Origin: Chara braunii
Lineage: Eukaryota; Plantae; Charophyceae
Assembly: GCA_003427395.1 (NCBI GenBank)
Contig: BFEA01000005.1
Coordinates: forward strand, 3,951,292-4,000,829
Direction of reading: 5' to 3'
Length of the DNA: 49,538 nucleotides
Every line of letters starts with the position of its first letter. The stretch's first letter is position 1. The notes under the pieces were generated by a model that saw only the letters and a list, made by a program, of their open reading frames with translations, was not told where the DNA came from and made no database searches. The translations under genes and the position numbers were made by a program. This document shows, piece after piece, positions 1 to 41,960 of this stretch.

Positions 1-3000
1 GTGGTCTTACACTCCCTCGCTCTCTCCGCCCCTCCAGCCCTTTTCTTCCCTGACCCTTGCCAAGGGTTATCCTCGTAGTCATACACTCCCTATCCCCGCC
101 GCCCTCAACAATTTTTCAACATATACTCAGTCACACTTCCTTCTAACAAATAAAGCTCACATTCACGCACTAACCATTCCCTCCTGCTCACCGCCTTCCC
201 CCCAATCCCCATACGCCCTCCGTTTCTTTCTCTCTCATCCCTCACCCTTTTCGAAATCATGGTCCAACAATTCCTCAACCCGTCGCACCCGGACTGAACC
301 TACTCGAAAATAGTCATCCCCGCCTCTCTAGGATTAGTAGTTTAGAACGGAAATCACAATTTAGTCCGTCACAAGACATACAGACTTTCGGTGGTGCTTG
401 ACGTGACTGCGAACTGTAGTGTCGCTCTCTGATTCCACATTCATAAAAGAAACAGATGTACTTGACGGAAACTCGCAGTCGTCACCTCGCTGAAAACTAG
501 AAGGCACCCTACATTGCAATAGTCTCACCCCCCGCACTGGTACAGTCAATCCCAAATCCCGATTACATGTTCAATCGCAATGTCGTAACTTTTTTTCTGC
601 ATGTTTTACTATAAGAACCTCGATCTGGCTTACTGCGATATCAGGATGTGTGTCTTGCTCCATTACGCGACTCTCTCAGATGCACATAAACGACTTCAGT
701 AAACTACCCTGTACATTTTCGATTGGATTGCTTCCTTTCCCCCACCCTTCCACCGACCCCATGACCGCACGCATCCGCTACCCTCTGTCTCACGCTCCGT
801 CCTTCTTGCCCCCTTCTTCGCCCCCCCACATGCACCTCCCTTCATTTTCTTCCCCGTTCATATAGGCCTGAAGGATCGACGATGGAAATCTTGTCCTAAA
901 CACTCGACATACCCTCTTGCAACTCTATGACAACCCTTTCCCCGCCCCTCCCGACCGCTCCTTTGCTACCGCCAACCTACACCATTTTAGCCTAATCACT
1001 AGCGCTCCCTTCCACACTATCTGATCACACCTTTATCTCACCAGTAGACGTGTACAGTAGGTACTGGAGAAATAAAAAAGAAAAAAATCTCACCTCCAAA
1101 GGAATCGAGGGTTAATCATCATCTCAAGTAATATCAGGTTTTTTATAGTAATAATCATCTAATTAATATTATTTACCGACATGTCTACGTGGCAAATGCC
1201 GACTTGTGTAGGGAACAACACATTTTATTGCTCAAATGTTATCACTATAAAATACCTCTTGCCTGTGCGATGTTTCGGAACTCCATGATAGGACCAGGGG
1301 CGGAGGTTGGTAGAAGAGGAGAATGCACGGTTTCTTGACCACGGGCCCAATCAGCTTGTCCAGGGAGAGGTTGCAGTCGAGAGGGAGCTGACAGAAGAGA
1401 GTTCGTCAGGAAGGGCAGCAACTGGGTGCTGATTGGAACTGTTATGACCCGCAGATAAGGGAAAGAGGGTAATAAGCTTTCAAGTTATCAACGTAATTCA
1501 TGTTTTTGTTTTCACAGTCATTATATTCGCCATTGGTTAAAGTTTGCCCTTGCGATCTATTATGTGTGCGACGCAAAGGGTCCGGTCTTTGTTCTTCTCC
1601 CTCTAGGGTCACAAACTCTGTCCGTCTGTTTTTTGAAGGCGCAGGCGAATGGGTAATAAAGCCTAATGAGTCTATTCTTTTCAACGTGAAGCTTCGCGTA
1701 CAGATACGCTAAGCGATCGCCAATTAGGTCTGCCTAGCTCATCTTCGCATTGTAAACTCGGTGCTGAAAGCGCGTAACTCTCTGCAGCTATAGGCGCCGA
1801 CGTGAGTATGACAGCGCAAGAACTTGCGAATTGAAAACTCAACTAATTGACACGCTTAGCACACACATCTCTTCTTCCTGCCTTCAAGAACTCTTCCCCA
1901 TATGTCTAATTGCACTCCAAGAGTTTTTGAAACTCCCCTCTGCAAAACCCTTGACAATGCTTTCGCCACTTTATACCAGGGTATCCAAATATACCCTCAC
2001 ACTCACATTAACCCCCCTACAACAAGATTTACCGTTCGTACCTCCCCCCTTCATAAAATAGCACCCCCAAGACAGCAACATCACTACGTTCTCTCTCCAA
2101 GATAAAAACCCTCTCCACCAACGGAGATCTTAGTACCTTACACCCTCTTAGCTCCTCTACCCCCAACTTCCTCACCAGAGTGATTACTCCTGAAAACCCT
2201 CAGGCACACCTCCCCTCACTTACCAACCTCGGATCACAGTAGACCAACCACCATTGCAATGAAAATAATTCAAAAGAAACCACTCAAAAGCAGACCCAAA
2301 AAATATAGATAAGTAGATAGTTGTGCATGTATAGCCCTTATACTCAGAGGTCCTACTTGACATAACTCTAACCCCTCACCTTTGTCTTCGTAGGGTGTCA
2401 TCGAACTGCACGCTCTACATATGGTTGCTCTTTTCCCCAGCAACTTCTCTCAGGTCGGTCCTTCTTCCTAGACTAGCCATCCTCTCCTACCACCCCTTCC
2501 CTCATATTAACCAACTCCGCTTCAGAAGGTTTTCGTTCTCCCATTAAAACCTGGGTTTCCCCAATCTCTCAAAACCTCATATAATTTCCCCTCAACTTCT
2601 TCCCTGTACTACACACCGTAAGCAATTAGAGATAGGGAATGTGTTCTCCATAAAAAAAAACAGGATCTTGACAAGATCCACCCTGAGAATGTCGCTAGTA
2701 TGAGTCTAACCTCCCTCCCACAAACTATGACCATTCACCCTTATCCTTCATCCCTTATTTCAGTCTTCCTTACATACAATCCAAAGAAAATTCACCTCAC
2801 CTGCTCATTCCTCCCCTACCCAGTCCTGACACATTCTGTTATATCATCCCTGCACTTTGAGTCGGTTAATTTGATTTACACGGCCCTACCCCACTTACCT
2901 CTTCAGACACTCTGCAGGCACTTCGACCGTATCTCGAAAACCTTCTTTTGCAGGCAAAGATCGCTCCCTGTTCCTCCGCCCTCTTGTTGGCATTCACTAC

Positions 3001-3104
3001 TTATCCCTCTCCTCGTTAAGCCCTTCCATTTGAACTACCCTTCTTTCTCCCCAATGCAGAAGAATCCCCAGTACAACACCTGTTTTATAAAATCATGATC
3101 TCCC

Positions 3105-5406
3105 TTGCTACGTTCTCACCCTCATGACGTTGCTGCCTCGTATCCCTATCTTGTGCAGGACCAGGAGAATGTCAACAGAGGATGGCATGCAGAGCTCGCC
3201 CCCCTCGTCGCCCCCTTTGCTGCACTCCAGCCACCTACTGCGCACTCACAACTTGTGATGATGACGCTACCCAAGGAAGTCCTCCTCAAGGTCCACGAGG
3301 TCGCACAAACCCCAAGTCTTATAGAGGCACTCACCTTCAGCGACTGGGCCGTCCTCAGTGGGATTTATGAATCCGACCCTGACACACTCGATAGAAAAAT
3401 CCAAACCTTCGCCCTCAGTGCCCCGGTTGTTTTGTCCATTAATAGAATTGAGAATAGGGAGATCTGCAAACTTGCCAATGCGGAGAAGACGATCTTGGAG
3501 AGGTTCGGATATAGCACTGCCCACCTCACGAATGTTGGTGACATAGACATCTCTGAACATGTCAACGAGAAAAGACAGGAAAGGAGGAGACGAATTGGCT
3601 TGTCACAAGCAGAGATAAAGTACCTAGATAAACAGCAAGAGAAAAGACTGAACACCGTTCTCTCCACCGCCTCCACTGCTGCAGATGCATCTGGTAGGGC
3701 ACATAAGCTTGGACAGGACAGTCATTTTCTCCCACTCCCGTCTAGCTCATGGATAGAAAGACAGAGCAAGCACGTCTCCCACAAGCTGTAGCACTTAGAT
3801 AACTTTAACTATGTTGCGCCTATCACTGTCGATGCCTACAAAGCCCTTGCAAATCTCTCAGACAATGACCTGCGGAAGTGTAAGGAAGCGGCCAACAGCT
3901 TCGCCCTACACCTCCCCCACAACAAGCCAGCCTTCGACGGGAACTTCCCCGTACTTGCCATTCTTGACCAAATGCCCTGTTTCCAAACAGGTCCTCGTGC
4001 AGAAGGGCTTCCCACGAGCACCACAGACTCTTGAAGAGGTTAAGAAGATGTGGAACACCGGTAGACCGTATCTCAAATGCACCTGCACTTCGAACTGCGG
4101 CAAGACGATCACCTGGTTCGATCACTTCATCTGGTACTACATCGCCAATCTGGACTTCTTCGATCCAGGCGCCCCTTCGGACATCACCAGGATGCTGGAC
4201 TTCCAGCAGCGACTCGAGACCGAGTGGAGACAGCCAGTACTGGCGCAAGTGACTTTCCTCTACATGAGGAAGATGATGACCGCCCTCTTGGAAAGGCTCA
4301 TCGACAACCCCAAGAGCAAAGTGGGGCAACTGCTGGAGCACCCCTGGATATGCGAAGTCCCTTTCGCCAGAAGGTTCGCAACAATCCTCCTCCCCGAAGA
4401 TATTGATCAAGCCAAGACCCTCGCCTCAGGATGCGGTGCGAAATCCCCTGCAAGTGACATGGTGCAGCGTAGCAGGCCCAGGCAAACAACACTCAACTTC
4501 CCTACCACTCCCAACACCCAACCCACCAACACCCCCTCGCCAGCCTCTGTCAATCTTGGAACACCCAGCGGAACCCCCACTCCCAGGACCCGAGATCCCT
4601 GCTCCAACCCCCCACTTGCCCCCCGAACACACCTTCCTCCTCCCCACAACCCCCTGGTTCCCACCCCCCAACCCCGCGCACATGCAAACCCATCCCCCGC
4701 CCCCCATACTGGTCCCTCCTTACACCAGGCTCCCCCTCCTACAAGCACCCGCCCAAACCCCGCTGCGATTGCAGACGCAACCGCGGTCGCCACAACAGCT
4801 CAAAGACCCAAGTCGAAAAAGCCTAGAAATGGACGCAGAGGCAAAGGCGCCAGCTCACGCACAACAAAAAGAGCTCGCATCCAGAACGTCATCATTGGAC
4901 ACTCTTCTGAACCAGCCCTCAGAGCCCAGGCTCAACAACTCATCTCCACTGCCCTTCTGTCGAGTCATGCACTGCCACCTATCCTCCCACTCCCTAGCCT
5001 ACACAATGTCGTGTCTGACTCCATCGCCCACAGCCCCTTCCCCACTCAGTCTGGTCTTCCTCAGCCCCAGCCTTCCACCAACAGCTGGATCCCGCCCGTA
5101 CAACAACTTATTAGACGACTCTCAGCAAATGCCTCTCCTCCTCCCCTCCACCTCCCCATACAAGTAATCAACATCTCTGAGAACTCGTCCAGACCTGGCT
5201 CCAGACCCCACCTGGCCATCAACGTGAGCTCCCCCTCCCCTGACACTCCAGCCAAACCTGCCAGTTCGTTTGGCCATATTCTCCAAGGCTTTGGCACTGA
5301 TGGTTCCCTCTCCGCTTCAAGCTGCATCGGCAATGAAGAAGTCGTCCAGGAAACGCAAGATCCAGCAATAGCAAAGGCCACCAGGAGAAACCTCGGACAT
5401 GACTAA
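3105..5406 (+). pseudogene. Disrupted orphan ORF of about 750 codons, possibly the ORF1/accessory gene of the downstream Penelope-like element
   Basis: ORF 3105-3791 reads through a single TAG and continues in frame (HLDNFNYVAPITVDAY...). It then shifts near 3980 into the 3811-5406 frame, which carries a CTC..NC..W..H..W motif and a long Pro/Ser/Thr-rich tail with a basic patch. No family recognised. Confidence 0.45.
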
Positions 5407-5599
5407 GACCAAGAGCGCCTCGCCCTTTCCACCTCCTAATCCACTGTAGTATGCAGATAGCCAGATCCGTTACGCACGCGGTTGGTGATCCTGACTCACA
5501 CAGGCCTGGTCCAGTTACCCGTCCACTTAATAGTTTACACGACATAGATACTTCAACGGAAACCGAGCTACTCAATACAAGAACCGTATAGGCTGCTCT

Positions 5600-6590
5600 T
5601 ACGACCGGAACATGTACTTCTAGTTTTGACAGCCGGCCCGCCCGGTCTGCCTAGTTCTGGAAAGATGCTTACAAAGCTAGGACACAGTCGGGCGAGCTTT
5701 GTTATAGCCTTTACGACAACCTGAGCTCTGAACCTTTTTTGAACATTTCTGCCTCTGGGCCTGAATGCTTCAGGTATAGGCTAGCCCAAGTTTAGAACTT
5801 TCGGCAAAGCTGTTTTTCCATAAAGATGCAGTTGTCTCAGGGTTAATAGAATCTTGTTTCCTCCTGAACGTCTTGATGACTCATCTTATGTACCTTCCCC
5901 TTTTTTTCATGTCCGCTCTACACCTTGTTTCATCATTGGTTTGTTATTCACCCCGATATAAACCTTGTTTATGTCCGGGGCGTGGAACTCTGAAATCAGC
6001 GGCAGGCCTGCCCACCATAACTAGTCTAGAAACGGTGCTTGGTTAGGACATAGTCTAAAGAGTTGTTTTGTATCCTTGGCTACAACCTGAACTCTGAGAT
6101 TTTTTATAAAGCTGTTTCCGTTTGAGTTTTCTTTCGTTCTGCAAATATTACGATCTTAATACAATCTGGATTTCTCATGAGTGGTCAATTGTTGATGGCT
6201 CACTTTTAGTGCTCCCGTTTGCCGTCTGCTCTACACCTTTTATTATTACTTTGTTGTTACTTTTTCACCCCAATGAAGACTTTGTTTGCGTCAGGTGCAT
6301 GAAATTCTGAAATCAGTTGCAGGCCTGCCCAATCTTTCTAGTATAGGATTGGTGCTAGGCTATGACACGATCTGAGGAGGTGTTTGGAAGCCTTTGCTGT
6401 GAACTGAGTTATATGATTCTTTTTTGAAACCTGAGACTCTGCGCCTGGATGCCCCAGGTACTTACGGTCTATAATTTTGAAGCCTTCATTTCAGTTGTCT
6501 CGTTCCATTCCCCATACAAATGTTACGGTCTTAGTACATTCTAGTTTGGACAGTCGTCGTGCTTCCGTTTGCCGTCCACTCTACACCTTC
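5600..6590. repeat. Diverged direct repeats with a period of about 310-350 bp
   Basis: The blocks 'ctctacacctt...ttcacccc...tctgaaatcag..gcaggcctgccca' recur at ~5915-6015 and ~6228-6332. A partial third copy lies near 6540-6590. Confidence 0.55.
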
Positions 6591-7175
6591 CTTTCCACCC
6601 CAACCACCTTCCCTTTTTTAAGCCTTCAAACCTAATTCATACGAATACTCACATCCATGACACCACCATAAGAGAGTCCACACCCCTAGACCCTACCCCC
6701 CATGCCCACCTCTTCCCCTCATAGGACTCGGTCCGACTTCTCTCTCCCCCACTGGTGCCCGCTCTCCCAATACTTTTTAGAAATGCAAAAATTTAAGACC
6801 AGTACATAGTTATGGTATTCGGGCCATAGGTTCTCTTAATTATGAACCCACACATATTTCTGACCACTGCCGGAAAATGCAAGTCTGAACCATTCAATAT
6901 TCACTGCAATAGTTTAAAGCTCTAGCTGCAAAATGACTTGTGTGCTACGCTAAGCAAAGGAGAAAATTGCATCATTAATGTCAAAAACTTTTTTTTCCCC
7001 CCATTAATGTCTAGAAATTGTTGTCTTTAATAAACAGGAATCCCACCTCACAGTCATGGAGGACGGAAGACGCGGCTGGAGAAGGCAGGCAGCCACACCA
7101 GAACGGCTAATGCATTTGCACTAGACAAGCAGGCTTTTTGAAAGGATCAAGCCCAAGAAAATAATCTCAGAGATC

Positions 7176-9146
7176 TTGGGGGAACATATTCCCGACATCG
7201 CCACCCACCTGGGTGCAATTACCTATGGATGGACCTATGACGCACATATCGCCAAAAAGCTATATAAACCCTCTGAGGTTTTTCAAACCTTCGATCTCCT
7301 CTCCTGGTATGAAGGGCAGCCGCCGCAATGCTTCTTCCAGCAGGACAGATTCTTGTCATATGCTCTCCACAGTTTTGATGGCAGCTTACCCCCCCACGTC
7401 GTCACCCTCGACCTCAGCATTGTCAAAAATCACGAGCTCAGAAAACAACTATCGATGGGATTGAATCATATCCCCCTCACAACACATAAAATCACGGAGG
7501 TCTTAGAGCAGATATCCAATGCACTGTCCCTCACCCTGGATTTTCTTAAGCAAAGTGGATGTCGCATCACTTCAGAGATTCGTGACATCTCTCACTATCA
7601 ACTCAGAGCGGTCATTAGGCGTACCTGCTCTCATCACCTCCAGTCCTTCCCAAAAGACAATCATGCAATGAAAAAAGAAATAAACTTCCTTACAGAACAT
7701 TTCTACATCTCCGGGACGGATAAAGCACCCAACACTCCATCTATTACCTGTATTAACTACATCAGATTTCTTGCGCTCCAGAGACTTACTGGAAATGACT
7801 TCACACCCTGTGAAATCACAACCTTTGACTTAGTGAACCAACTCGAATACCATATTACCACCTCCTTCCCCTTCTGTCCCATATAGAACAAGAATCTTCC
7901 CTACCTAATGGCGATCTACAAAAAACACAAGAATAGTTTTCGCTGGTTAACAAATGCGTCTAATGTCATCTTCTCCCCCCTTGCAGATATCTGCGCCTCC
8001 ACTCTGAAATCACTCTCAGAAATGGTAAAAAAGCACTGCGGGCTGCTAACAGAAGAAACAGAAAAAAAAATGGGCTGCAGGGTTTCTTTTTGGTGGATTA
8101 TAGACTCTGTCTCCGACGATGTCTATAACCTTCCCCCTAAGATACATACACTGTTCTTGGCAGACATAACTCGCTGTTACGAGACCATCCCGACAGACAG
8201 TTCACCTGACGGGCTCCCCGCCGCAGTCGAATTCTTTACTGACTTGGCATTTAAACAAGCAAAGAAGACGCTTGGGAGAAATGCTAAACTAGTATGTAAA
8301 ATCAGGGAGACAGAGAAAGACGTCAAATTCTACACAGAATGGACTTCCACACCTTCCCCTGACCTCATCACCCTCTCTCCACAGCTCATCAAAGATATGA
8401 ACAGTTGGCTGATCAACAATGCCTTTACCTCACTTGGAGGTCTCATATGGAATCAAACTCTCGGAATACCTATGGGTCTGAGTTGCTCTCCTATTTGGTG
8501 CAACATTTACTTTTTTCATTACGAATACAAGTTCATGAGGAAACTCAGGCGTCTCCCTAACCGACATCTACTTCCCCTTTTTCAGCATACCTTCAGATAC
8601 TTTGATGACCTAAACTCCATAAATAACCCCAGAATTCTAGACTTCTTAAATCCTGCAAACAAAAATAGCAATAGCAAATACTTCCTTTACCCACTCAATT
8701 TTGTCACCCTCATTGAGCAAACTGCTGAACATGCCGAACTTAACTCCAAACGGATCGGCACGAAGGCAAACTTCCTCTATGCCACAGTCACAATTCTCGA
8801 TCCTCTACAAGGCACGTACAAAACCACGAAGTTCGATAAAAGAAAAGAACTTGACTTTCCTATCACTCGGTTCATTAAGTTCCACTCTAACAGACCCGTG
8901 TATCAGTCGCTCAAGATCCTCATACCCCAAATCATAAACATACTAACCATCACATCAGACCATGAGGATGCTCTGTCAGACATCCTTGACACCATACAGA
9001 CCATGGTGAACAAGGGCTTCAACACTCACAAATGTCTGAAAGTTGTCGAAATCACGCTTAGGAATCCCCAGCAATACCAACCTTTTCGTTGTGACCACAA
9101 TCTTGTACTAAGCTCACTTTCCAAAACACGTGTTGTATGTGTGTAG
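7176..9146 (+). pseudogene. Penelope-like reverse transcriptase with one in-frame stop at 7884-7886
   Basis: The 7176-7886 and 7908-9146 ORFs share one frame. Motifs: GLNHIP, DKAPN, LPYLMAIYKKHK..FRW, ADITRCYETIP (motif A), QTLGIPMGLSCSPIWCNIYF (B'), FRYFDDL (C), and the thumb FDKRKELDFPI. No GIY-YIG motif seen. Confidence 0.85.
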
Positions 9147-12421: not shown

Positions 12422-13392
12422 TACACACACACATACACAATCATTTCTATGTTTTAGTAAAGGTCTTAAATGGAGACTATAACTGAAAGGTAGAAGCCAT
12501 ATCACATATGAAATGTGCAAAATTGTGTTTTTACTAAATGTGCAAAATTGTGTCTTTATTCACATGCTTACAGACAAAAGAAGAAACAACTATTCAGCAG
12601 ACTTCAAACAATCAAAACATCAAACAAGCACAGGTAAACTATTTTGTTTTTTTTGTTTTTATGCAATTGAATAAAAGCTACACACATCATTGGTGAGCTC
12701 AGTTCACACTAATGGTCAGACACCAAATTGGTCCATGTTCACGTTTCTCATATACTAGCGAAACACATTCCTCAAAACACTAGTGTAACTTTCACCTACA
12801 TAAAGGCTTTGACCACGTGAAAGACTCTGATTTCTCAAAAACAAAATTGACTTAGTTAGTAGTGACAAATTGACTAAAGACCTTAAATGAAGGCTATAGG
12901 CGAAAGATACAAGACATAAGGGAAGACCCTAAGTGAAGACCATATCCAAAGGTTATAACTAAAATATGAAAGCCCTAAGCAAAGGACCTATATGAAAGTA
13001 GTGGCCAAAATACAAAGGTCCTAAGTGAAGGCAAGGCTCAATCTGACCGTAAGTGAAGGATATAAACGAAAGATGCAAGCCATATGGGAATGCCTTAAGA
13101 GAAGGCCTTCTAAGCGAAAGATGCAAGACATATGGGAAGACCCTAAGTGAAGGTCTTATGCAAAAAGTTGTAACTAAAAAATACAAGCCCTAACCAAAAG
13201 CCATAGGTGAAACTTCTGACCAAAACACACATGCTTACAAGCAAAAGAAGAAACAACTATTCAACAGACTTCAAACAAGCACAAGTAAACTATTTTGTTT
13301 TTTTTTATTTTTATGCAAATGAATGAAAGCTACACACATCATTGGTGAACTCAGTTCACACTAATGGCCAGACACCAAATTGGTATTCACGT
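11960..13392. repeat. Degenerate tandem repeats: ~240-bp units with (CT)n(CA)n microsatellites, then ~660-bp units rich in 'ccctaagtgaagg'
   Basis: 'cacacaatcgtttctatgtttgactaagg' recurs at 11965 and 12210. The block 12560-13220 repeats from 13228 onward, is interrupted by the LTR element and resumes at 37498. Confidence 0.8.
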
Positions 13393-13819
13393 TGTCGGTG
13401 CGAATACCCTTACAAGGGTATCCGCCCTGATTTTTGCAAGCGAAAAAAAATAAGTTTAGTTAAAAGTTTAAGTATACCACGCGAGTCGCGGCAGTGTCCG
13501 TTGTTTATGCGGCTGATGGTTGACTAGATTAAAGAGTGTGTGGGCGTGCGAATCTGAGACACGCGCGATGTTTTAAATTGTTGATGATTGTGAAAATCGG
13601 CGTTGGTCGCCGACTGGATTTTTATCTTAATTTAAATAGGGATTAAAAAAATTATGTCTCGCCTATGACTTGTGCGTACGTATGGGGGACGGCGTCGACA
13701 ACAGTGTAGCTTCTGAAATTGTTTTGGTAGGTCGGTGCGTCGTCCAGTGCCCGTTTATTTAGGCGTCTGTCGGAGCTGAACCCAGACTTGGACCTAGCAT
13801 CAGCGGTTACGGTGTTCGA

Positions 13820-16240
13820 CGGGGCTATCCCCCTTGATTTTGCCGGCGGTGACTTCGGAAAGCTTCTAATAATTTCCTTTCCCCTGTTCGCCATATTTCG
13901 ACGATTAAAAGTCTATATATTTTATTTGATTATTTGTATTGACGTTATTAATTTTTGCGTCAGTTATTTCTTGACTTGGACGTGGCACCGGGATTGGTGG
14001 CCGTCATGGCAGTCGAGGACCATGATCACGCGCCTCTTTGGCGGGCCCGTTTGAACTTCCTGCGTGTTCGAGATGTTGACGATATTCCTTTATCTTGTCC
14101 GTCTTAAGAAAGAGGGGCGAAAAAATTTATGTGCATTCGAGCGGATGGGTGATTGAACCGCAAGGCGGAAGAAACCTGAATGGCAGGGATTGCCGCGGCG
14201 AGCCCTCCGCCAACTACAGTCTGTAGTAGAAAGGAGCATGAGCACGGGTATTGGGTCCTACAAAAGGCTGATATGAGCCTGGGCAATGGCCGGGGCACTA
14301 GGAAGGGGCCTCACTATGGCTATGTTCGCCTGAAACCATGTTTCTACGAGGATTTTTCAAAGTCCTGATCTGGATAATTGCTACCATCATTGAGAGCCGC
14401 ACCGGGTCGGTGTGCCAGGGCCCGTACGGCAGGCCACGCCTCTGAATCTGTAACCTGCTATCTGTGAGGGGGGCGCCTCTTGCGGGTCAGAAGCGGTGGT
14501 GAGCTCCACCTGAGTAGAACGAGGCAGGTGTAGTAGGGGTTAGCACTGTTACTGCCGTAGGAATCATCTGTCGGGCTTGAGCATAGGGGCGAAAAGACCA
14601 GATGAACCACCTAGTAGCCGGTTCCCTTTGAAGTTTCCCGTGGGACAACCGAAGTTGTTCGGCAGCTCCGCTGCCCGGGTGTGGGACCGAGCGCCGCAGC
14701 CGGAGGAAACGTTGGGGGAGGCTGGCAACGACACAGATCGGGCAGTAGGTGCCTAGAAGCCCGCTCGTCGGCCTTGAGGTATAGGGCAAAAGGCTATCGG
14801 GTTGTCATGTAGTTGCTCTCCCCGAAAAGTCCCTGAGCGGAACAGTCGGGAAGGCTGCAACACTAAGGCGCTGATGGGCTGATGATGAAAGTGGTGAGAG
14901 GCCGTGAGCGTTATTGGTACGGGAAAGAAAAGGGTGAGGCTGATGCGGTGGTGAAAATGGGCCGAGTGAATCCGGACGAGAAAGTATGCCGGGTGAGTGC
15001 AGAGAAGGTGGCAAACTATGGCGAAGACAACGGGAGCATAGGAGTGAGAAACGTACAGCCCTCCCATTCCTTAGTGGAAATAGGCGGGGGAAGATGCGAT
15101 ATGGGGGTTTTGGAGTAGGGTGAATACGTTAGTAATGTTAGTTTTAGTAGTAGATTAGTAGAATAGGAGAAGAAAGAGAAGTTGGTGCGAGGAGCTATGG
15201 AGGAGACGAGAAGAAGAGGGAGGAAGAGTGTGTAGAATGGTCAGTTGGGTATGAAATTAGTCGGGGAGCGGGGCGTTCCTACTGTTTTAGGAGTAGGCGA
15301 ATCGGATTTTGAAGTCAGAATCGAAGGAAGGTTAGTAGATGAGCGGGTAGAAATGAAACAGGCAGCGTGGAGATGGCGGGAAGTATGAAGGAGGGAGAGT
15401 AGGAAAATGCCTACCTCCCTCGTTTCTGAGCGGTTTCGAACGAAGGGGAGCTCAATTCTGGGTTTTTTTGACTCTACGAAACAATCTATGGAGTTAGATT
15501 TGAGGATAAATGTTTAGTTTAGGCGGGGTGGTGGAACAAGGCTGCGCGCTGCATGACGAAAAACGACATCGAGAGCAGAGATAGAAATGACTGTGTATCT
15601 TCCCGAGCTTCAGGAGAAGATTCATGAACAAATTATACATTTAAAGATCGACAATTCTGCCGTTGCCCCTTACACCCGCCATCCTGGCCAATGCTCTGGA
15701 TGGGGTTAATCATCGTCATCAGGAGGCCAGCTGCGAGATTAAAAGACTTACCTGTTGAGTCGAAACACTTCTCACGTTGACGACGAAGCAACTCGGACAA
15801 GCGATGGGGTTGCAGACTAACAGACCGACCGGTGAGTCGTCGATATCATCAGCGGAGATGACAAAGACACTAGTCACGGGATGGGGGAAGGTGTGGCCGA
15901 TTATTTGCTAACGAATTGAAGCGAAGGACGAGAGAGAGTTCGAGGGAGGTGGGGCGCACGTACCTAAGGTTGTAGTGGGGCGAGGAGACTGCAAACGACA
16001 TAAGCAGGTGGTGGGTGGCAAACGGGGAGCGAACTACGGAAGGTGGAGACCCGTGTGCTAATCGTGCACTGCTCATTGAGCCACCGCTAGCAAAAAGGGG
16101 GGACGCCGCCCGTGGAAGTTAACGAAATGATTTAATTCACCAGTACGTCATATCTGGTGGTCGCTGCATTGGCTCACTTTATCGATAGAAGTGGCGGGAT
16201 GGTGCAGGCGGAGAAAGGGACGGTGTGAAGAGGGGCAACA
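13820..16240 (+). pseudogene. Degenerate, rearranged LSU (25S/28S) rRNA-derived mosaic inside the 5' LTR; not a functional rRNA gene
   Basis: Strongest match is 14576-14646 to the conserved LSU segment CTTGGGTATAGGGGCGAAAGACTAATCGAACCATCTAGTAGCTGGTTCC..GAAGTTTCCC (recalled consensus). Further weaker colinear anchors correspond to domains IV, V and VI. Confidence 0.7.
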
Positions 16241-17654
16241 ACCAACATTGGGTTGCAAATTGGGCAATAGGCGATTGACCCCAGAAGTTGGCAGCTTCAG
16301 ACTCGGATGCATCGATTCAACCACTATTGCTCACAACGACCTTGCCGAGCCACAGACTAGTAGTAGCTGCGTTCCCCACAGCCTAGGCGCCGAGTACATG
16401 TGAGAAGAGGAGGTACTATTGCTAAAATTATTGAGGGGTAGGAACGACTGTGGCAATTGGTGTAGGACCTTTACTGTAGACTGTGCTTGCCGACCTGACT
16501 GATAGCGGAGCGGGTCGCTAGTGTTTCCCGAACAGTTCAATCTATGAAACGCTGCTCATCATACTGATCGAAGCAGCCGCAGTGCAGGTCTAGCTGCGGG
16601 CTGGATGCTTGTTAGGACCGGGTGAGGGCTACACAGTCGACATCTACGCACACTCCCTCTGCTGCATGAACTGCTAGACCTCGTTGTCGTTGGCATTATG
16701 GCGTAAGAAAAGACCGTGCTCCTCAGCTTGGTCCGTATCTCAAGCTGTGGCTAGTGCGTTTTCGGAAACACGAGCTCGGCGGAGTGGCCGAGTCATTTAA
16801 GGAGGGGTCATCGTTGCGACTTGGAGAGTCGTCAGAAAGTCAACAGTTGAACGTTGGCTGCTGTTGGCAGTTGTTGGCTGCTGCTGGCTGTGGCAGACTG
16901 TTGCTGGCTGACTGCTGACGGCTACAGACCAGAGCAAACTGCCGCTATCTGACTGTTGACCGATACAGGTTGCCTCAGACTACTGTGTAGCGATGATTGG
17001 TCTAAAGAGAGATGCTGGGACTTATAGGGGTAAAAGGGGCTGTTGCGACAATTTGGAAGGTCGTCTGGGAGTTGAATTCAACAGTTTGACTTCAGGATTT
17101 GATCAAGCTGCTGCGGCCTGACCATCATTGTGGGGCCCTCAGGCGAGTGAAGGTATCGAGGTCCTCTCCTGGGAGTTGAGTTGTCCCTCTCTTGCATCTC
17201 GAGCGTCTGAAACTCCTTATCTTCTGCCCTTCTTACTCTAAGTCTAGTCCTGATCTGAGAAGAAGGCGGCAGGCAGGATTGCAACCCGTAGGACCGCAGC
17301 AAGGCCTACGTGGGAGGTTACCCCACCGATTGCGGGAGCTCTGCCGGAACTCAGGAGGGGTTCTGAAGGCAAGGATATGAGAGGTAACCACCCATTTCCC
17401 TCTATAAACTCATATTATAGCCCCTATCTGTATTGCCCATTGCATGTTTGAATGAGTATATGGTATACGGCCCTACTTTGACTTTTTGTCTTACTTTCAT
17501 GACTCAAAACCAGATTAAATAAAAGAATGGTTGATCAAGTTCAGTTTTAAACTTTGTTGACTGTGTGAAAGCAGACTGTTTAAAGAGATTGCATATGGGA
17601 AAGGGCAGGATGGGAAGCAGTCTTGCGTGAGGTTTGACTGGGTTATCACGGCTG

Positions 17655-18590
17655 GGAGGTCCCCATAAGTTTGGGGAGACCCAATGCTTTGTTTTATTTT
17701 GGACTGTGTGGAGCATCAGACCATTCTATAAGTTTAGGTGGTCTGATTGTTCTAAAGGCTGGGAAGTCCCCATAAGTTTTGGGAGACCTAGTGCTGTGGG
17801 TTTGTATTGAGAATCCGATCATTCTATAAGTTTAGGTTATCTGGTTGCTCTGACTTGCGAGGGCTGCTTGTGATTGACTTTTTCAGGGACCAAGTGTGTT
17901 CTGTAAGTTCAGGTGCCTTGGTTGCCTTGTTATTTTGGGTTTTCCTCTGTTTATTAGGTTCCGAACGAGGAGGTCTGAGCCATTCTATAAGTTTAGGTGA
18001 CTCAACCTCTTCCTGTTTTATTTTAAGGGAATGTACTTGACAAAGGGGAAGACCGTTCTATAAGTTTAGGTGGTCTAACCCAATGCCACACACATATTGG
18101 ATCAGAGAGAAACAAATCAGGCAGAGAGTCGGACTGTTCTGTAAGTTCAGGTGGTCTAACTTAAAGCCCGTATATGTTGGAACCCAATGATATAATTTGG
18201 CTATATTTTATTACTATCTTATTTATGAACAAGCTAGTCAGACTATTCTATAAGTTTAGGTAGTCTTACTATAACGTATCACAATGTGAAGAGAGTATAA
18301 CTAAGAGTATAATTGAACGTAACCTGAACCGACTGAGCATTGTTTCTAAGATGAATGAATCAGTCCTACGCCCGCTTTGAAGATTAAGTTCAGAGAGATA
18401 TATACAATCTGACTACTTAAACAGTTCAGGGCGACTAGAATGGTCTAGTCATATGCCCAAAGAAGAGAGAAGTAGTTGTGCCCTCTGTTATGTGTATGCT
18501 CTTTGGGTAAGTTGGACTTATTCCATAAGTTTGGGTGACTTGACTTTATGCCTGACTAAGTAAGACACATTCCATAAGTTTGGGTGTCCT
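17655..18590 (+). repeat. Array of about 11 interspersed hairpins with an invariant TAAGTT loop
   Basis: For example cagaccattcta-TAAGTT-taggtggtctg; the stems covary between copies. Confidence 0.8.
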
Positions 18591-21204
18591 AACCTTATGC
18601 CTTATGTGAGTTGGATATAAGGGGTTAAATCATTGAGAGATTATGAACTATTGTTTGTTTAGAGAAACTTTGGATGATGAGAGTACTTACCTTTGTGGTT
18701 TGACTTGCATGTGGCTGAGTGAGATGACTACCTGGTCTGAGTTTCAGTTTGATAGGTAGTTGCTTTAGTTGCTCGCCACGTGCTAGAGCCATAGGAGTTA
18801 GTTTCAGTTTCTGCATTGTCTAAGTTAAGTTTTTTTTACTTAGATTAATTTTCGCATTTTCTGGGATCTTTTATTATACTTGGTCTTATATAAATGTTGG
18901 TAAGCCACTTTCTCTACGGAAAGCGCTGCCGAAATGTCTACAAAACCAAGAAGTTAGTCAGACTCTGTCTTTTTCAGGGTCCAGTTCTTTTTTTTGACTT
19001 TTTGACTTAGTAAAAATCTGGAAAGTTTCACTTTCTAAAGGGAGTGCTGCCCAAATTTTTGCTAATTCAGTGAGTTAGACAAAATTAGACCTTGAAAAGT
19101 CGAAGTCATTTCTGAATCCAAACTTAGCTTTGTATAAATTCTGATATAGCACTTTCTCTACGGGAAGCGCTGCCGAAATTTTTACAAATCTAAGGAGTTA
19201 GTTAAATTTTGTCTTAACTGAACTCATGTTTTTATATTTGAGTTCATTTCTGACTTAGTATAAATCTGAAAAGAGTCTCCCTTTGTAGAGGAAGTGCTGC
19301 CCACTAATTCAGAGAGTTAGACAAAATTTCGACTTTCTATAATTTTGGGCTAGTGTAAATTCTGCGAGGGCACTTTTCCTACGGGAAGCGCTGCCGAAAT
19401 TTTCTTAATTTAGAGGGGTTAGATTATATTTTGACAGGTGGCGATTCTGGAAAATCCACTCTGTATAGGGGAGATTCTGCCACGGTCTACCTTTCCTTTG
19501 ACATTTGCTTAGAGGTAGACTTAGGCATTTGTTAATTAGGATGGTTTGGGTGAGATCGTGATAAGGAGATTATTCTCCCTGGACTCATAAACTTAGCTTG
19601 GGGGATTGGACTGTCATGTGTTACAGGTCCTCTTAATTGATTGATTTAGGATTTGGGCTAGATTCAGCTTGATCTTGCGAGGATCATCTTCTGCTATCAC
19701 TGATAACAGGTCAGTTGCCGATTCGTCGGTTTACGACTCAACCTCAATCCACCCTCAACATTCAACCTAAAAGGCTTTAGCCTTGGTGATTTTACTGTTT
19801 TGTTAAGGTTTCACCCAAAATTTTATTGAATGGTCATTTAACAAAGATACTGAGCATTTAATTATGGTTAGTTGGAGAGGAGGTTGGGGCTTGCATGGCT
19901 TAAGCAAGGGGTATGAGTGTAGAGGTTGGTTGAAGTTGACTTCGTGTAGTGCGTGGACTTTTTGTTTGACTCTTTGATGTGATGGCAGGTATGTATGGTG
20001 GCTCGGATCTGGATTGACCTGCCTATGATCATACATATGTATAAGTGGTTTTGAGGAGTCCCACTGTGATTGTGGGAAGTGATCGTCACATACTTATCCC
20101 CTTTATAAATATACAAAGACATATGTGCACCTATGTTGAGAGTTCGCGCGGCCTGAAGGGCCCGCGTATTAAGGGTTGAATAGAGGTTGAGGCTGAGAAA
20201 AGGCAGAAAACCCCCTCTTCCGATTGTATACTTGTTGATGATCTTTTAGTCGGACGTTGGTCTTGGGTCGGGATTCAAGGCCCTTGTCTAGGACATCCTA
20301 AGTCCTAGACTCTGCATAGAAGGGATAACCCCTCGGGCAGATTCTATTTGCCTTGCCTGTTGAGACATTCAGGCCAAGGGTCGGAGGTCTCACGGCGGTT
20401 GCACGGCTATTCCTTCAGCCATGCAATATCGTGAGGGAACAAACCATCACGACACTTCGAGTCTGACACATGAGTGTCATAAGCGGTACTCGGATCCACG
20501 AGGGACCGCTTGATTATGAGCACTACATAGTACGCCATCATTGCGACTGCTTGCGCGCGCTTGCATTGCGAGTCGATACGAGTAGGCCCTGCGTCCGTGC
20601 GGTTTTTTTACTAAGTCTTGCACGTGACGCCTATCCGAGATCCGCATCGGAGAGTTATGGGATGGCTACCGAGGGACTAGGAGTGTTGTCGCGATGTTTG
20701 TTCTGTGTCGTTTTGTGTACGTGTACGTATGTGTATTTTTTTATTTTTTTTAATGTTTTTTAGAGTGGTGTGTGCGTGGTGAGTGAGATACGTCCTAGTC
20801 GACCGACGTCGGACCGCGCTTGGAACTTCAACCCCCCAAGATGTCGGTTCGCGTGCGGGTCCAATAGAGGCGTATTACCGCGCGTACCCCCTATGCTACA
20901 ACGAACGAGAAACGCCCTCGACTGGTCCACCTCTGTGATTGCAACTGATTAGCTTTCGTATTGTGGACTGGTAGCTCGGCAGGGATATGCCCACCGAAGG
21001 AAGGTGATAACTCCCGTAAGGTGGAGGTAAGTCGTTCCTCGCTTAGCAGGGTATCGCGAGAGGTATGGCTGGCGCACTCGGCCGGAGCGGCTTGTAGAAG
21101 CTCCATGTATATTCGCGACGAGGATTAAGAACCAACTCCTGCGTGACGTGGCCGGGAGGGTCCCGCGCTGCCCAGTGCGGTGCTGGACCGATGTGCTCGA
21201 CAGG

Positions 21205-21222
21205 TGGCGTCGTTGCTGGGGA
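21205..21222 (+). promoter_or_regulatory. Primer binding site (tRNA-Asp)
   Basis: TGGCGTCGTTGCTGGGGA lies 2 nt after the LTR and is near-complementary to the plant tRNA-Asp(GUC) 3' end (..TCCCCGGCAACGGCGCCA). Confidence 0.85.
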
Positions 21223-23259: not shown

Positions 23260-24052
23260 CTCAGCGACTAAAGGCAGGGGCCATAAAGGAAGAGTCGATA
23301 GTCGTTAAGTCAGATGATGAGGAGAGAGGAGAGGAGGGAGATTCAGTCATAACCATTCTGGAGAAGATGGAGGACTTGCTGGGGAAAGTGGATAGGTACA
23401 AGCAAAGGTTAAAGAGTTTGTGTGATGAGACCAAGGAATGGAGGGCCAACCTCCTTGGAGTTTTCCTCTATGAGTTCGGGCCCGAATCATCGTCGGGGCA
23501 GCAAGGGTATACAAGGGTTGCGATTGTGGGGTCAGACCCTAGGTCGGGGATGACCTATAGGCCCCCCACGTCGCATGGAAGAGTGCCATAGGCAGCACGG
23601 ACCAGAAGCTAGAACAAGGCTGGAACCAGTCAAGTGCCCAGCCAGGCGCCTAGTCAGGCGCCCCCTCGAAGGGAACTTGAGCCCGAGCGCAGGAAGGAGG
23701 TGGTGGAAGTCCCAGAAGAGGAAGAGGAAGATGAAGACGAGGAGGATGAGAGGCTCCGACAAGAGGAAGACCGGCGGGCGGAGCTAAGAGTTAGGAAGAG
23801 AGGGGTTCATGAGGAAGTTGAGCCGCGGTTTGGCTAAAAGAGGGCTTTGATGTGGAAAGGGTGGTGGACAGACTCCTGGAAGGCCACAATGACCTGATAA
23901 ACTTGAAGGACATTTTGGCGTCAGCCCCAAGGCTCCGTGATGGTTTGAAGGGGCGGCTCTCGTGAAGATTAGTGCCCAATGTCCATCTGAGTACGATCCT
24001 GCCGAGGGAGGTAGAGTTGACTGAAGCAGGGACAAGCATGGAGTGAAAGTGT

Positions 24053-24520
24053 GTGGCGTGTGGCCAGGTGGATTTGGTGGTGAAGGATCAGAAGTGCACT
24101 AGAATGGTGGATACAGGCGCTGAAATGAACATCATCCGGGAAAGGGAAGCGATCATGCTGGGAATGGAGATCGACCGTTCGGACTACTGTATGCTACATG
24201 GCGCCAATTGCAAGGCGGTCTTTTGTGGCACGACGTCCAATGTGATCGTGGAGATTGACAAGGTACGAACAAGGACCTGTTTCTTTGTTATGCCGGATGT
24301 TGACCATTCTGTCCTCTTGGGTAGATCTTTCCTGTGCAGGACGGAAACACTGATTTTTAACAAGCACGATGGGACGATGATCCTACTCTTGTGCGACCCG
24401 GCCTGCGAGAACTACGAAGTCATTACTTGCCGGAACACAAGGGCGCGGAGTGGGAGGAACAGGCCTAACCCCGGCTCGTTCACCTTCGAGGAATCCGAAA
24501 ACGAGCGACGGAGGCTCTAG
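24053..24520 (+). pseudogene. pol: Aspartic protease domain of pol
   Basis: MVDTGAEMNII and VLLGRSFL motifs. Confidence 0.9.
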
Positions 24521-25059
24521 GAGCTGCCCGAGGTGGAAGGAGGGGCCGAAGTGCTGACGCTGAGCCTTATTGATGTAAATGAGGCTATGGAGGTGGTGGC
24601 AACGCATGACATGGCAGACCCCGAGGCCATTAGGGCGCTGAGGGAGCAGGTTTTAGAGAGCCCTTAAGTGAGAGAAGTGGAGCTGGTTTATCGACTTCCG
24701 GGTGGAAGGGGAGATCCTGCAATGGCACAAGCACAACACGCAAGCCGACCTTTTTTAGGGGACGGCTTAAGCAGGGTTCCCAAAGGCGGTACAAAACGGT
24801 AGATAAAAAGTGCCGCCCAGTTCCCGTGCTCATTACTGAAGATGAGGAAGCCTATTACGAGCGGGAACGAGGACTGATACGGCGCATGCGGGAGCAAGCA
24901 GCAAGTGCTTCGTGCCGTATCAACGATGAGAATGAAGGGAAGCTGATAATTGGAGAGCCTGACTTCCTTTTACCCTAGGAGAAGACTCTGATGGTGGAGC
25001 TAATGAAAAGGAGGCATCGCATTTACGCCTTTAATGACGATCAGCGTGGGAGACTGGAT

Positions 25060-25943
25060 GTGGAAAGATCCCGATGATTCGGATCCACACAATACCACAC
25101 GAGCCATAAAATCTAAGAGGCGTGCGATATCCCAACCCTGATGAGGAAAAGATGGTGGTGGACTACCTGGACGACAAGATGCGCACGCACGTTGCTTACT
25201 ACTCTAGCGGGCCGTATGCTTCCCCTTGGTTTTGTTTCGTTAAGTCAAACGGGACGCTGCAGTGGGTACAAGATTTGCAGTGGCTAAATGCGGTGGCAAT
25301 GCGAGATGCGGGAGGTTTGTCGAACGCGGACGCATTGTAAGAGTCATGCGCAGGAAGGCCTATAATTTCGCTTATAGACCTCTACTCTGGGTATGACCAG
25401 TTTTCTGTATATCCGCCAGATAGGCCTGTAACGACAATGCATACGCCTAGAGGGCTAATTCATATGAATGTAGCCCCTCAGGGCTGGACGAATGCGGTGG
25501 CAATGGTGCAAAGACACATGATCAGAGCCATGCAAACGGTCAGTCCACACATCACCCAACCTTATATCCATGACTTGGCGGTCAAAGGCCCGAAGGAAAG
25601 AGAGGAAGACGAAGTGATGCCCAAAGTAAGGCGTTTTGTCTGGAAGCATGTCCAGGATCCTAATCGGGTCCTGAGCCTGTTGGAAGAATATAACCTTACA
25701 TCAAGTGGTCCAAATTCCAAGCACTATATGAGGGAAGCCACCATCTTGGGGTTTGTCTGTAATGAGAAAGGTCGAAGACCTTACGTGAAGAAGAAAGACA
25801 AGATCCTGGAGTGGCCACTACCTTTTCGTTCGATAACGGACGTAAGGAGCTTCCTCGACAGTGAATTCTGGAGGAGCTTTGTAAAAAACTTTACCGCTAA
25901 GACTGAGTATTTGAGAAAGCTGGTACGTCAGGACCAGGAATGA
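25060..25943 (+). pseudogene. pol: Reverse transcriptase domain of pol, disrupted
   Basis: PYASPWFCFVK, WVQDLQ.LN, IDLYSGYDQ, PQGWTNA, catalytic motif mutated to YIHD, VRSFL; in-frame stops present. Confidence 0.92.
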
Positions 25944-25970
25944 ATTTGAGGCGGAGATCGGGAAGAGGTT

Positions 25971-26420
25971 GTGAAGCGAATGAAGGAAGAGTTTAAAGAA
26001 GGAGGTTTGGTGTTAGGGGTGCCAAACTGTGAGGTTACAGAGGAGAAACCGTTCATCATCGAGACGGACGCTGGGCCAACTGCCCTGGGAGGAGTCTTGG
26101 TTCAGGCAGATGCCGATGAGAAGGAGAGGCCGCTGAGATTCGAGAGTCAGACTCTCAATACGACTGAGAGGAACTATTCTCAGTTTAAAAAGGAGACTCT
26201 TGTGGTACTCCATTGCCTGAGGATCTTCCGGAACTATGTTTTTGGCAGGAGGTTCATATTGAGGGTGGACCCCACTGCGCTCGCCTGTTCCCTAAAGAAT
26301 TATACACCATCGGACCCAACCGTCGCGAGATGGCTGACGTACATTTGGATGTTTAACTTTGAGTTGGAGAGGATTCCAGGGGACAAAAACAGGGTAGATG
26401 GGTTGAGCCGCATCAACTGG
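25971..26420 (+). pseudogene. pol: RNase H domain of pol
   Basis: FIIETDAG..LGGVL.Q, ERNYSQFKKE, FILRVD, RW, IPG.KN.VDGLSR. Confidence 0.92.
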
Positions 26421-26642
26421 GATGAGCCTGATCAAGGGTCGATAGAAGACACTCCGCCGATTGATGGGTTCTTGGGCCAAGAAGAAGACGCCCGCCTCCA
26501 TATAAATGAATGGTCCCTGCGAGTGCCTAGTTGTGTCAGCCACCCCATATGGCTAGCGCCTAGGGGGTATGAACAAAAAGAGGAGTTGGTCCTCAAGCCC
26601 TTTCAAGAGGAGGATCCATGGGGAAGTAAGGATGTCCACTAG

Positions 26643-28141
26643 ATGATGAAATTGGCATTGGCTGGTACACATAGTCTGGCGGAGGAAGCGAGGACGATAG
26701 AGGAGAGCCCCACTCAGGTAGAGGAGCATGAGCAGTTAATGGGAGGAATGTACCTGCTTACAAATACGCTTCTGCAAGGAGACTTTGACCGGAAGGGCTC
26801 ATTCAGTCCTATTGAGGGCGAGGACTTCGTTCCTGAAAGCCAGGATGATGAGTTCGAGGAAGGAAAGATCAAGGAAGTCTTCCGTGCGAAAGAATATAAT
26901 GGAATCTACCTGGAGTTAGGACTGCTCCTGTCCTGTGAGATGAAGAATAGAGATGTAAGTGATAAGGCGCAGAAGATAAGGCACCTGTATGTGGTAAGAG
27001 ATGACCATTTGTTCATAAAGCGACAGGTCAGGAATCCCAAGAGAATTATGTGCGGGAGGAACCGACAGATCGACATCATCGCGACATTGCACGACGGTAT
27101 AGCAGGAGGACACAGGGGATTAAATGCTATGTATGCAAAGATAAGCGAGCTATACTACTGGGATGAGATGCTGAACATGGTCATCGAGTATTGCCAGTCT
27201 TGCGTACCTTGCCAAGAAAGGTCACCGCAAAGGCCAGGGGAGCCCCTACACCCAAGATTGGAGAAGGAAGTAGGCGCGGCTGTACGTCTAGATCTACTCT
27301 TCATGCCGGTTGGGGAAAACGGATGTAATTACATCTTCGATGCGCGAGATAACCTTACCGGGTTTGTAGATGGTCGGGCTATTCGCACAAAGACCGGCCC
27401 AGTTTTGGCGAGCTGCATCGAAGAGTATTATCTATGCTACCCTTTCGTCAAAGAGTTCGTGATGGATCGAGGATCGAAGTTTACCTGTAACGAGGTGCGG
27501 ACTTTGCTTGCAAGGTATGGCGTGGTGGCGAATTATACTACTGCTGTACATCCTCAAGCAAATGCACCTGTGGAAAGGGGACACAGTACCATTACAAATC
27601 ACCTAGCCAAGTGGACGGAAGGCAAACCCGGCCAGTGGCCGAAGTTCTTGCGCGCAACTTTCTTTGTGGAGAATGTCACGGTGAAGAGAACTACCAAGTA
27701 CGCGCCAGCTACTCTGTGGTACGGAAGGCACGCCACCTTTCCCATAAAAAGTTTTATGAAAACCTGGAGGCGCCAAGACTTAGAGGTCAACCTGTCTTTC
27801 GAAGAGCTGCTCGATATTCGGGCGCGACAAGTAGGGGCTGCTGAAGAAAGGTTACGGGAGGCCGCCAATCAGGTAGAGAGGAGCCGCATGGATGATAAGA
27901 TGCGATGAGACCAGATGGCGCGAGTGAGGAAGGAACAATTGGGAGTTGGGGACGACTATTGCTGTACGACTCCTCCTTGGAGAAGCAATGATCGAGAAAG
28001 CTCACCAAAAAGTGGATGGGGCCCTATAGGATCTTGCGGTGCGGCGAATGTGGAGCCTACCAGATCGAGGAGCTGGACGGGACAGGATGGCAGGATTGGG
28101 TGTCAGGGACCAAGTTAAAGAAGTTTGTGGCCAGGAAATAG
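26643..28141 (+). pseudogene. pol: Integrase (acidic linker, HHCC, DDE core, GPY tail), disrupted near the 3' end
   Basis: LHDGIAGGH...CQSCVPCQ; LDLLF, VMDRG, NAPVERGH; KWMGPYRI tail after a stop and a frameshift. No chromodomain seen. Confidence 0.92.
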
Positions 28142-28319
28142 GTAAAGAGTTTCATACCCCCCAGAATAAACCATTGCCTAAAAGTGTCGCATGTCCTGGT
28201 TAGACTAAGTAGGGAAAGGAAGGGATAGGTATGTATGTGTTTGTCATAGACTCGATGAACCTGATGGCTGATCTCGTTGTGTGCCTGTTTGCTTCCTCTC
28301 GCCTGATGTGCAAGCCTAA

Positions 28320-30097: not shown

Positions 30098-30252
30098 TGT
30101 TGTGGTTTGCGTGATTTGATGGAGACCTCGAACCAGAGTCTGTCAGCTAATCGGATTGGTTCCTTTCTCGTTAGCATTTGGAGTATGGATGAATTTATAG
30201 CTTTTTGATTCGGCAAAGCGACGGGGACGTCGCTTAATATGGTCCGGTAAGC

Positions 30253-37497: not shown

Positions 37498-38300
37498 ACG
37501 TTTCTCACATACTTGCGAAACACATTCCTCAAAACACTAGTGTAACTTTCACCGACATGAAGGTTTTGACCACGTCAAAGGTTTTGATTTTTCAAAAATG
37601 AAATTGACTTAGTGATGTAGTAGTGACAAGTTGACTAAAGGCCCTAAATGAAGGCTATAAGTGAAAGATGCAAGACATAAGGGAAGACCCTAAGTGAAGA
37701 CCCTATGCAAAGGTTGTAACTAAAATATGAAAGTCCTAAGTAAAGGACTTATGTCAAAGTTCTGGCCAAAAGACAAAGGCCCTAAGTGAAGGTCGGGCTC
37801 AATCTGGCCGTAAGGGAAGGATATACGAGAAAGATACAAGCCATATAGAAAGGCCCTAAGTGAAGGTCTTATAAGCGAAAGATGCAAGCCATATGGTTGT
37901 AACTAAAGGATACAAGCCCTAACCAAAAGCCATAGGTGAAACTTCTGACCAAAAGACAAAGGCCCTAACTAAAGGTCATATTTGATTCTAAACAATTTTC
38001 ACTAAACACCCTAAGTGAAGACTTCATCTAAAAACTGCAAGACATAAGCAAAAACCCTAAGAAAGAACCTTGTCTAAAGGTTATACTTGAAACACAAAAG
38101 CCCTAACACATAGATACAAAAACACACCAAAAAAATGCAAGCCATATTTCGCAAAGGTTGTAACTGAAAGATTAAACACCTAGCTAAAGGTTATAAAAAC
38201 CCTAATTGATAATAAATATTTTTTCACTAAAAACCTTAAGTGAAAGCTTCAACTAGAAACTCTAAGACATAAGCAAAAACCCTAAGAAACACTTGATTAA
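37498..38300. repeat. Continuation of the host degenerate repeat interrupted by element 1
   Basis: 37498-37960 matches 12741-13220. Confidence 0.8.

Positions 38301-41919: not shown

Positions 41920-41960
<41 letters not shown>

Follow-up and report, generated by a model that had tools for sequence, protein, structure and literature searches.

Both long terminal repeats (LTRs) of a 24-kb retrotransposon from the alga Chara braunii carry, as sequence comparison indicates, a rearranged and decayed mosaic of about 855 nt derived from large-subunit (LSU) ribosomal RNA. The mosaic spans 13996-14850 in the 5′ LTR and is composed of four blocks, in the order A, C, B, D, which is the same in both LTRs. 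Coordinates refer to the window, i.e., the whole stretch of 49,538 nucleotides of contig BFEA01000005.1 that was analyzed. The reading we favor, with a probability of roughly 60%, is that an ancestral copy of the element acquired LSU rRNA in U3 through a switch of reverse transcriptase to host rRNA packaged along with it, and that the insert has since been copied passively while decaying. LSU fragments within a gypsy LTR are real and their placement is apparently undescribed, and the insert is smaller than claimed in the first-pass annotation of this DNA: of the ~2.5 kb proposed there, rRNA is supported for about 855 of 2421 bases, or about a third.

The giant LTRs of that annotation are both present on the + strand, as established by self-blastn and alignment, around pol remnants in gypsy order: the 5′ LTR (LTR1) occupies 13393-21202, with a length of 7.8 kb and TG...CA termini, and the 3′ LTR (LTR2) occupies 30253-37497, with a length of 7.2 kb. 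In a pairwise alignment they differ by 540 mismatches over 7042 aligned sites (7.7%, K2P 0.082). A 4-bp target-site duplication, ACGT, is found at 13389-13392 with its second copy at 37498-37501 (+ strand), and the flanking repeat has an uninterrupted copy near 12730-12790. Directly after the 5′ LTR there is a primer-binding-site (PBS)-like motif (21205-21222, + strand), which we take to resemble the tRNA-Asp PBS of Athila-type elements. The broken pol (24047-27908, + strand) contains, according to Pfam, an aspartic protease, a reverse transcriptase, RNase H, and an integrase, with stops in all three frames; Pfam domains of pol occur in four of the 19 open reading frames (ORFs) scanned, and the 46 protein matches to the integrase ORF were without exception gene models of Chara braunii, which suggests that the DNA comes from this species or a close relative. 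The order PR-RT-RNaseH-IN between two LTRs, the TG..CA ends, and the target-site duplication identify the 24-kb element as a decayed Chara member of the Ty3/gypsy group.

Target-site duplications of land-plant gypsy elements are usually 5 bp long, and the 32 nt preceding 30253, i.e., the position of the polypurine tract (30220-30252), hold no clear purine run; the 4-bp duplication and the absence of a clear polypurine tract may mark a distinct Chara lineage. Two ORFs of 176 and 397 aa at 28320-30097 are without a Pfam match and lie between integrase and 3′ LTR, the same place where some gypsy lineages have extra or env-like ORFs. A stretch of 93 nt exclusive to the 3′ LTR (30681-30772) adjoins a high-copy motif, and the depth there is also high. 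Regarding the position of the rRNA insert within the LTR, TATA-like sites at 33985 and at 17403/34387 both fall downstream of it, as does the resumption of family RNA reads (bins from 17094 and 34083), and for these reasons the insert probably belongs to U3, the part of the LTR that is copied into both LTRs at every retrotransposition cycle.

The LSU profile used in the searches was made from 51 of 107 oriented eukaryotic loci, leaving out those with an LSU span below 1500 nt as well as L001, a viral-collection contig whose positions 1-122 join ~120 nt of eukaryotic LSU domain II to unrelated coding sequence and whose joint is likely an assembly chimera. With nhmmer, the whole window gave five matches, none of them outside the two LTRs: two to the domain II core, two to the collinear sequence upstream of it, and one in antisense. 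Local alignment of 18 segments against the LSU consensus singled out eight, namely blocks A-D in each LTR, whose scores were reached by 0 of 60 shuffles (z 5.5-41), while the remaining 10 were matched by 9-60 of 60; a chance resemblance is refuted by the whole-window search together with these shuffle-controlled alignments, and the reality of the signal is thus not confined to a domain II block of ~70 nt, the outcome that the first-pass annotation had named as fatal to its claim. When 33 sub-models were slid along the LSU, scores above all 60 shuffles in both LTRs were confined to the stretches 701-1200 and 1401-1700, and the top five tiles of a 124-tile scan of the window are these same rRNA blocks. 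At the gathering threshold, Rfam gave no match in the window.

Block A (13996-14290, + strand; in LTR2 from 30949 to about 31285, + strand, with a 37-nt local duplication at 30991-31027) begins in the D2 expansion segment and runs on into domain II; nhmmer E values are 1e-4 and 2e-4, z is 12.6 and 5.5, and the 3′ extension to ~14290 was reached by 3 and 0 of 200 shuffles. Block C (14323-14404, and 31312-31394 in LTR2) is on the - strand and corresponds to LSU sequence ~520-600 nt downstream of the domain II core, presumably the domain II/III boundary in customary LSU numbering; it has z values of 11.4 and 11.0, sub-model scores reached by 0 of 60 shuffles, and an nhmmer E of 0.17. Block B (14497-14666, and 31487-31657 in LTR2, + strand) is the domain II core, RF02543 positions 822-950 and onward, and gives the strongest values, with z 31 and 41, nhmmer E 5e-13 in LTR1 and 6e-18 in LTR2, RF02543 matches below the gathering score at 14495-14617 (E 7e-4) and 31485-31607 (E 1e-4), and blastn matches from 104 and 107 of the 107 fetched eukaryotic LSU loci; the domain II block previously reported in both LTRs is thereby confirmed by RF02543, nhmmer, and blastn. 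The second, more decayed copy noted right behind it is likewise genuine: block D (14685-14850, and 31675-31846 in LTR2, + strand) is an independently decayed domain II core, with z 9.1 and 9.9, 0 of 100 shuffles reaching its score, and best local alignments at 14698-14837 and 31685-31839 (0 of 60 shuffles in either LTR). The labels D2, domain II, and II/III boundary follow the general layout of LSU rRNA.

In LSU coordinates, block B begins slightly before the end point of A, and D restarts within the same stretch, so that a short piece of domain II is represented three times in the mosaic (A, B, and D). Searched segment by segment with the full model, nhmmer recovered B and D from each LTR, but C from LTR2 alone and A from neither; block A, and C of LTR1, therefore rest on the other searches and on host reads; Rfam on block C alone and on block D alone gave no LSU match, and on 31840-33000 no rRNA match. 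LSU similarity is not significant on either side of block C, at the beginning of B, or in the gap that follows B, and a continuation of block D as far as ~14910 has marginal support (11 of 200 shuffles). Beyond the mosaic, a purine-rich, subfamily-specific, low-copy LTR segment occupies the remaining 14851-17090 (+ strand) with no established rRNA similarity, and none of nine tiles of the 3′ part of the LTR beat all shuffles against the LSU. Rfam matches down to E 10 over 13300-21000 included no 5S or tRNA family, and those to snoRNA, lncRNA, and miRNA families (E >1) were dismissed as chance. A 215-aa antisense ORF over B-D (31477-32124) had no homolog among 458 candidates and was treated as spurious.

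These results redraw the arrangement given by the first-pass annotation, which read domains V-VI, II, II, and IV in permuted order and all in sense. The actual order is D2/domain II, antisense II/III boundary, domain II, and domain II; the sense orientation holds for A, B, and D, and the antisense block C had been missed. Domains V-VI, placed over 13820-14455, are not supported: against that domain alone, the LTR1 score was reached by 39 of 200 shuffles, and that of LTR2 by 2 of 200, but this last score comes from 29 nt within block A, a block assigned to D2/domain II by the alignments and the host rRNA reads. Most of the V-VI anchors fall within blocks A and C, and the first "domain V" anchor is an LTR motif without LSU similarity (13817-13850, + strand), whose counterpart in LTR2, near 30760-30800, has a high depth, with 122 contigs across it. 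Domain IV over 15305-15760 fares no better, since its scores against the whole LSU were reached by 20 of 60 (LTR1) and 29 of 60 (LTR2) shuffles; against domain IV alone, they were reached by 5 of 200 shuffles in LTR1 and, at a different spot, by 37 of 200 in LTR2. Sub-models from position 1601 to 3400 never beat all 60 shuffles in either LTR.

The source of the rRNA is indicated by RNA reads of the same species label, which were taken raw and aligned at >=80% identity. In run X6 they pile up on 13996-14105 to a depth of 25,000-34,000, and they also fall on 30949-30992 and 31119-31177; nearly all those on block A are of one strand, and their loose ends run into conserved LSU sequence. These reads are host rRNA aligning to a lineage-variable expansion segment. 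The 5′ part of block A is matched by none of the 107 fetched LSU loci, and since host rRNA reads fit the lineage-variable D2 and the fetched loci do not, the donor was likely the 26S rRNA of the host lineage itself. The host-type rRNA motif was also seen in one unrelated viral contig and in one of the 107 fetched loci, the latter not close to the LTR, and both were set aside. There is a practical side to this pileup: rRNA reads are drawn to LSU-like inserts and can pass for LTR expression (mean depth 10,727 in one bin of run X6). The reads on block A are of rRNA type, and the copy number of the insert is too low for an absence of reads to say anything about expression.

Decay of the blocks places the capture well before the present insertion. 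All eight block copies keep 63-76% of near-invariant positions, or 206 of 279 near-invariant nucleotides in LTR1 and 199 of 275 in LTR2, with ~27% changed. The pooled decay (JC 0.32-0.34) compares with a K2P of 0.082 between the LTRs, i.e., ~0.04 per LTR since insertion; if rates were alike, the capture would be several times older than the present insertion. Of ~100 conserved columns, only 2 show an identical derived letter in blocks B and D; columns altered in both blocks number 5 and 4, vs 7.1 and 5.7 if the changes were independent. With so few derived letters in common, the two copies would have separated close to the time of capture.

Whether the captured sequence still works as rRNA can be judged from its fold, for which B and D were compared with a pan-eukaryote consensus, not the host sequence, using the 49 profile loci that spanned the region. 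The base pairs kept are 32/48, 33/47, 26/34, and 24/34, against null expectations of 34.1, 34.3, 22.7, and 24.2 (P = 0.87, 0.79, 0.11, and 0.63), which is the level of random substitution, while the 49 real LSUs keep 99% of pairs; compensatory changes are also at the null level. Differences between the LTRs are as frequent in the blocks (71 of 855, 8.3%) as elsewhere (469 of 6187, 7.6%; P = 0.45). Neither helices and compensatory changes in B and D nor near-invariant nucleotides are thus maintained as in a functional LSU or a mimic of it, and there is no sign of selection for the rRNA fold in B and D. The annotation had suggested an rRNA mimic, which would bind ribosomal proteins, target the nucleolus, or recruit translation. 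In favor of a mimic, the insert would be sense in what LTR anatomy indicates is the 3′ untranslated end of the full-length element RNA. Against it, no more than 67-76% of pairs survive, the helices erode as expected under neutrality, the LTRs diverge equally within and beyond the blocks, domains IV-VI are missing, and the family seems to hold the insert rarely, most of its LTRs apparently lacking the region at >=80% identity. A full mimic, or else a chance resemblance or assembly artefact, is therefore very improbable; for the latter two, z values of up to 41 occur in the two LTRs, and parts of the insert are reproduced without a difference by short-read contigs of 223-313 nt. The captured rRNA is likely a passenger.

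The spread of the insert was read from DNA depth at >=80% identity, in which copies below 80% identity are invisible and summed contig depth does not equal copy number. Summed depth is 19-250 over 14113-17093, vs mostly 10^4-10^5 at shared LTR parts, and ~25-190 over 31289-33955 (one bin at 784/450), vs 56,000-67,000 at 34083-34200, a contrast of about three orders of magnitude between insert and shared LTR; single contigs have depths of 7-26. In the X2 set, 98, 191, and 267 contigs carry other sequence before 34103, 34106, and 34110, respectively, and one contig each in X2 and X3 joins 30521 to 34106. These depths suggest that the full insert is present in few copies only and that most family LTRs differ there, so the region appears, at this identity, to be largely missing from other family copies, which the annotation had listed as a result that would count against it. 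The depth at 31618 suggests that the B core is common to more than two or three copies. One contig over 31303-31601 has 32 differences and 2 gaps, where LTR1 would give 29 and no gaps, and another over 31303-31575 has 35 differences and 1 gap, where LTR1 would give 25 and no gaps; as these two contigs fit neither LTR, at least one further copy likely has the C-B junction. The earlier proposal that rRNA was captured and is inherited as part of the LTR is thereby supported by the mosaic shared between LTRs, the further-copy contigs, and the D2 match to host reads. Searching genome contigs with the LTR motif gave 0 matches. Inside the low-copy segment there is a depth island (784 and 450) at 32051-32177, corresponding to ~15050-15180 of LTR1, which lacks rRNA similarity and shows weak self-similarity to 32248-32335.

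The window also contains a second, related LTR element, with a 5.2-kb 5′ LTR (41177-46427), similar termini, and the same PBS type at ~46430; no LSU signal was found in this LTR. Its other LTR starts at 48958 (48958-49538; 94% over 581 nt), leaving ~2.5 kb between the two, and it is possibly a non-autonomous or deleted derivative. Immediately before it is a 91-bp tandem array (39012-41176) of ~22 copies with a 273-bp higher-order period. Long + strand ORFs at 2622-9146 (158, 230, 535, 253, and 419 aa), with weak sub-cut-off Pfam matches to a GRF-like zinc ribbon and CdaS_N, are probably another transposon.

One part of block A might have had a different fate from the rest. Its first 44 nt, the D2 island, have at least 4 differences from host rRNA among those listed, with P = 0.003 against a decay of 27%, a value colored by the fact that the 80% filter selected this stretch. 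At 30957, about half of the DNA depth in X2 and a fifth in X3 is not counted as the rRNA letter, which in X2 is carried by only 19 contigs there vs 106 at 30960; contigs join the high-copy motif (ending at 30786-30796) to 30952-30961, and two others have diverged letters over 30978-31047 in which hairpins are still possible by eye. Many LTR copies may therefore share the island, judging from the depth at 30957. On this basis, one could imagine that an ancient LSU capture founded a large Chara giant-LTR subfamily in which part of the rRNA, most likely this 5′ D2 piece by the high-copy motif, was domesticated as a U3 cis-element or RNA hairpin and conserved in hundreds of copies, the rest decaying. 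We consider this unlikely: the signal may come from a widespread conserved island or from overlapping rDNA unitigs, whose ends near the site could also explain the depth split; depth is down to about 120-130 by 14054, the two hairpin variants are anecdotes, and neither B nor D is constrained. Should the island prove conserved family-wide, the importance of the finding would rise sharply, and the D2 module would be to the LSU what Cassandra is to 5S rRNA, but hosted by an element of autonomous type.

Regarding how the rRNA entered, repeated staggered jumps of reverse transcriptase on rRNA during minus-strand synthesis would generate the overlapping sense blocks A, B, and D, and the U3 location would ensure that each retrotransposition places the insert in both LTRs, with no rRNA-like function conferred by a sequence acquired several times earlier than the current insertion. 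Template switching, as proposed in the annotation, fits the staggered overlapping sense blocks, although it is itself something we infer. The antisense block C is not an expected product of simple minus-strand switching and counts against it; C might instead derive from a switch in plus-strand synthesis or from a repair event at the DNA level. The latter can be extended to the whole mosaic if a pre-rearranged rDNA fragment (break-repair filler or orphon, with inversion and duplication) entered U3 via recombination, repair, or read-through and remained passive since. Antisense pieces and duplications are common in repair products, and both are present here; in human LINE-1/28S chimeras, moreover, opposite orientation is linked by the authors to twin priming and not to template switching (PMC13174262). 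Set against DNA-level capture are the sense, staggered disposition of three of the four blocks and the failure to detect SSU, ITS, or 5.8S in the LTR, where a profile from 17 non-host loci gave no nhmmer match and 2 of 16 tiles rose barely above 40 shuffles. We regard this route as rather doubtful, and prefer capture by template switching, with the proviso that an RNA template and an rDNA template would leave the same trace here, every block coming from within the LSU gene. So understood, the mosaic would be a fossil record of host rRNA copied by the reverse transcriptase of an LTR element, with its jumps and an inversion preserved, and it shows one route by which giant LTRs grow.

Pieces of rDNA inside transposons are already known, and as a passenger on present evidence the insert is of modest importance. 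The literature searched, which comprised few subscription papers and stood apart from repeat databases, showed no LTR element whose LTRs hold sequence derived from the LSU. A 2024 review tabulates LTR elements only with 5S-derived sequence and LSU only for SINE28, together with Pokey and 5S-bearing TRIMs and SINEs, and its authors speculate that most rDNA modules in transposable elements do not benefit the element (PMC10946416). The closest parallel in placement is offered by the TRIMs Cassandra, Ajax, and Helenus, which are described as short, non-autonomous, and endowed with an internal Pol III promoter from 5S rRNA or tRNA (PMC10886601; PMC10946416). Like them, the Chara element has a structural-RNA-derived sequence in both LTRs that is propagated with the LTR; unlike them, its source is LSU rRNA, a Pol I product, it is a 24-kb gypsy element with pol remnants and not a non-coding element below 1 kb with a 5S/tRNA Pol III promoter in its LTR, as Cassandra and Ajax (TRIMp3) are, and no conserved sub-motif is demonstrated. 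SINE28 shares the mobilization of LSU rRNA by retrotransposition and a low copy number (PMC4994717); it is a non-LTR element from the LSU 3′ end, whereas the Chara blocks come from D2/domain II and the II/III boundary, are rearranged, ~27% decayed at conserved sites, and lie inside an LTR. Human LINE-1/28S chimeras similarly join internal LSU fragments (50-482 nt, mostly sense) to a retroelement, template switching or RNA ligation being credited (PMC13174262); they are single insertions, while the Chara fragment resides within an LTR and has been through one or more additional cycles of retrotransposition. Finally, Galadriel/Monkey and certain tomato elements are LTR retrotransposons that are also associated with 35S rDNA; they insert into rDNA (PMC10946416; PMC2679016), whereas in Chara it is the LTR that contains rRNA sequence, and a repeat other than rDNA flanks the element. 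An LSU mosaic in both LTRs of a gypsy element thus extends the list of rDNA-bearing transposable elements.
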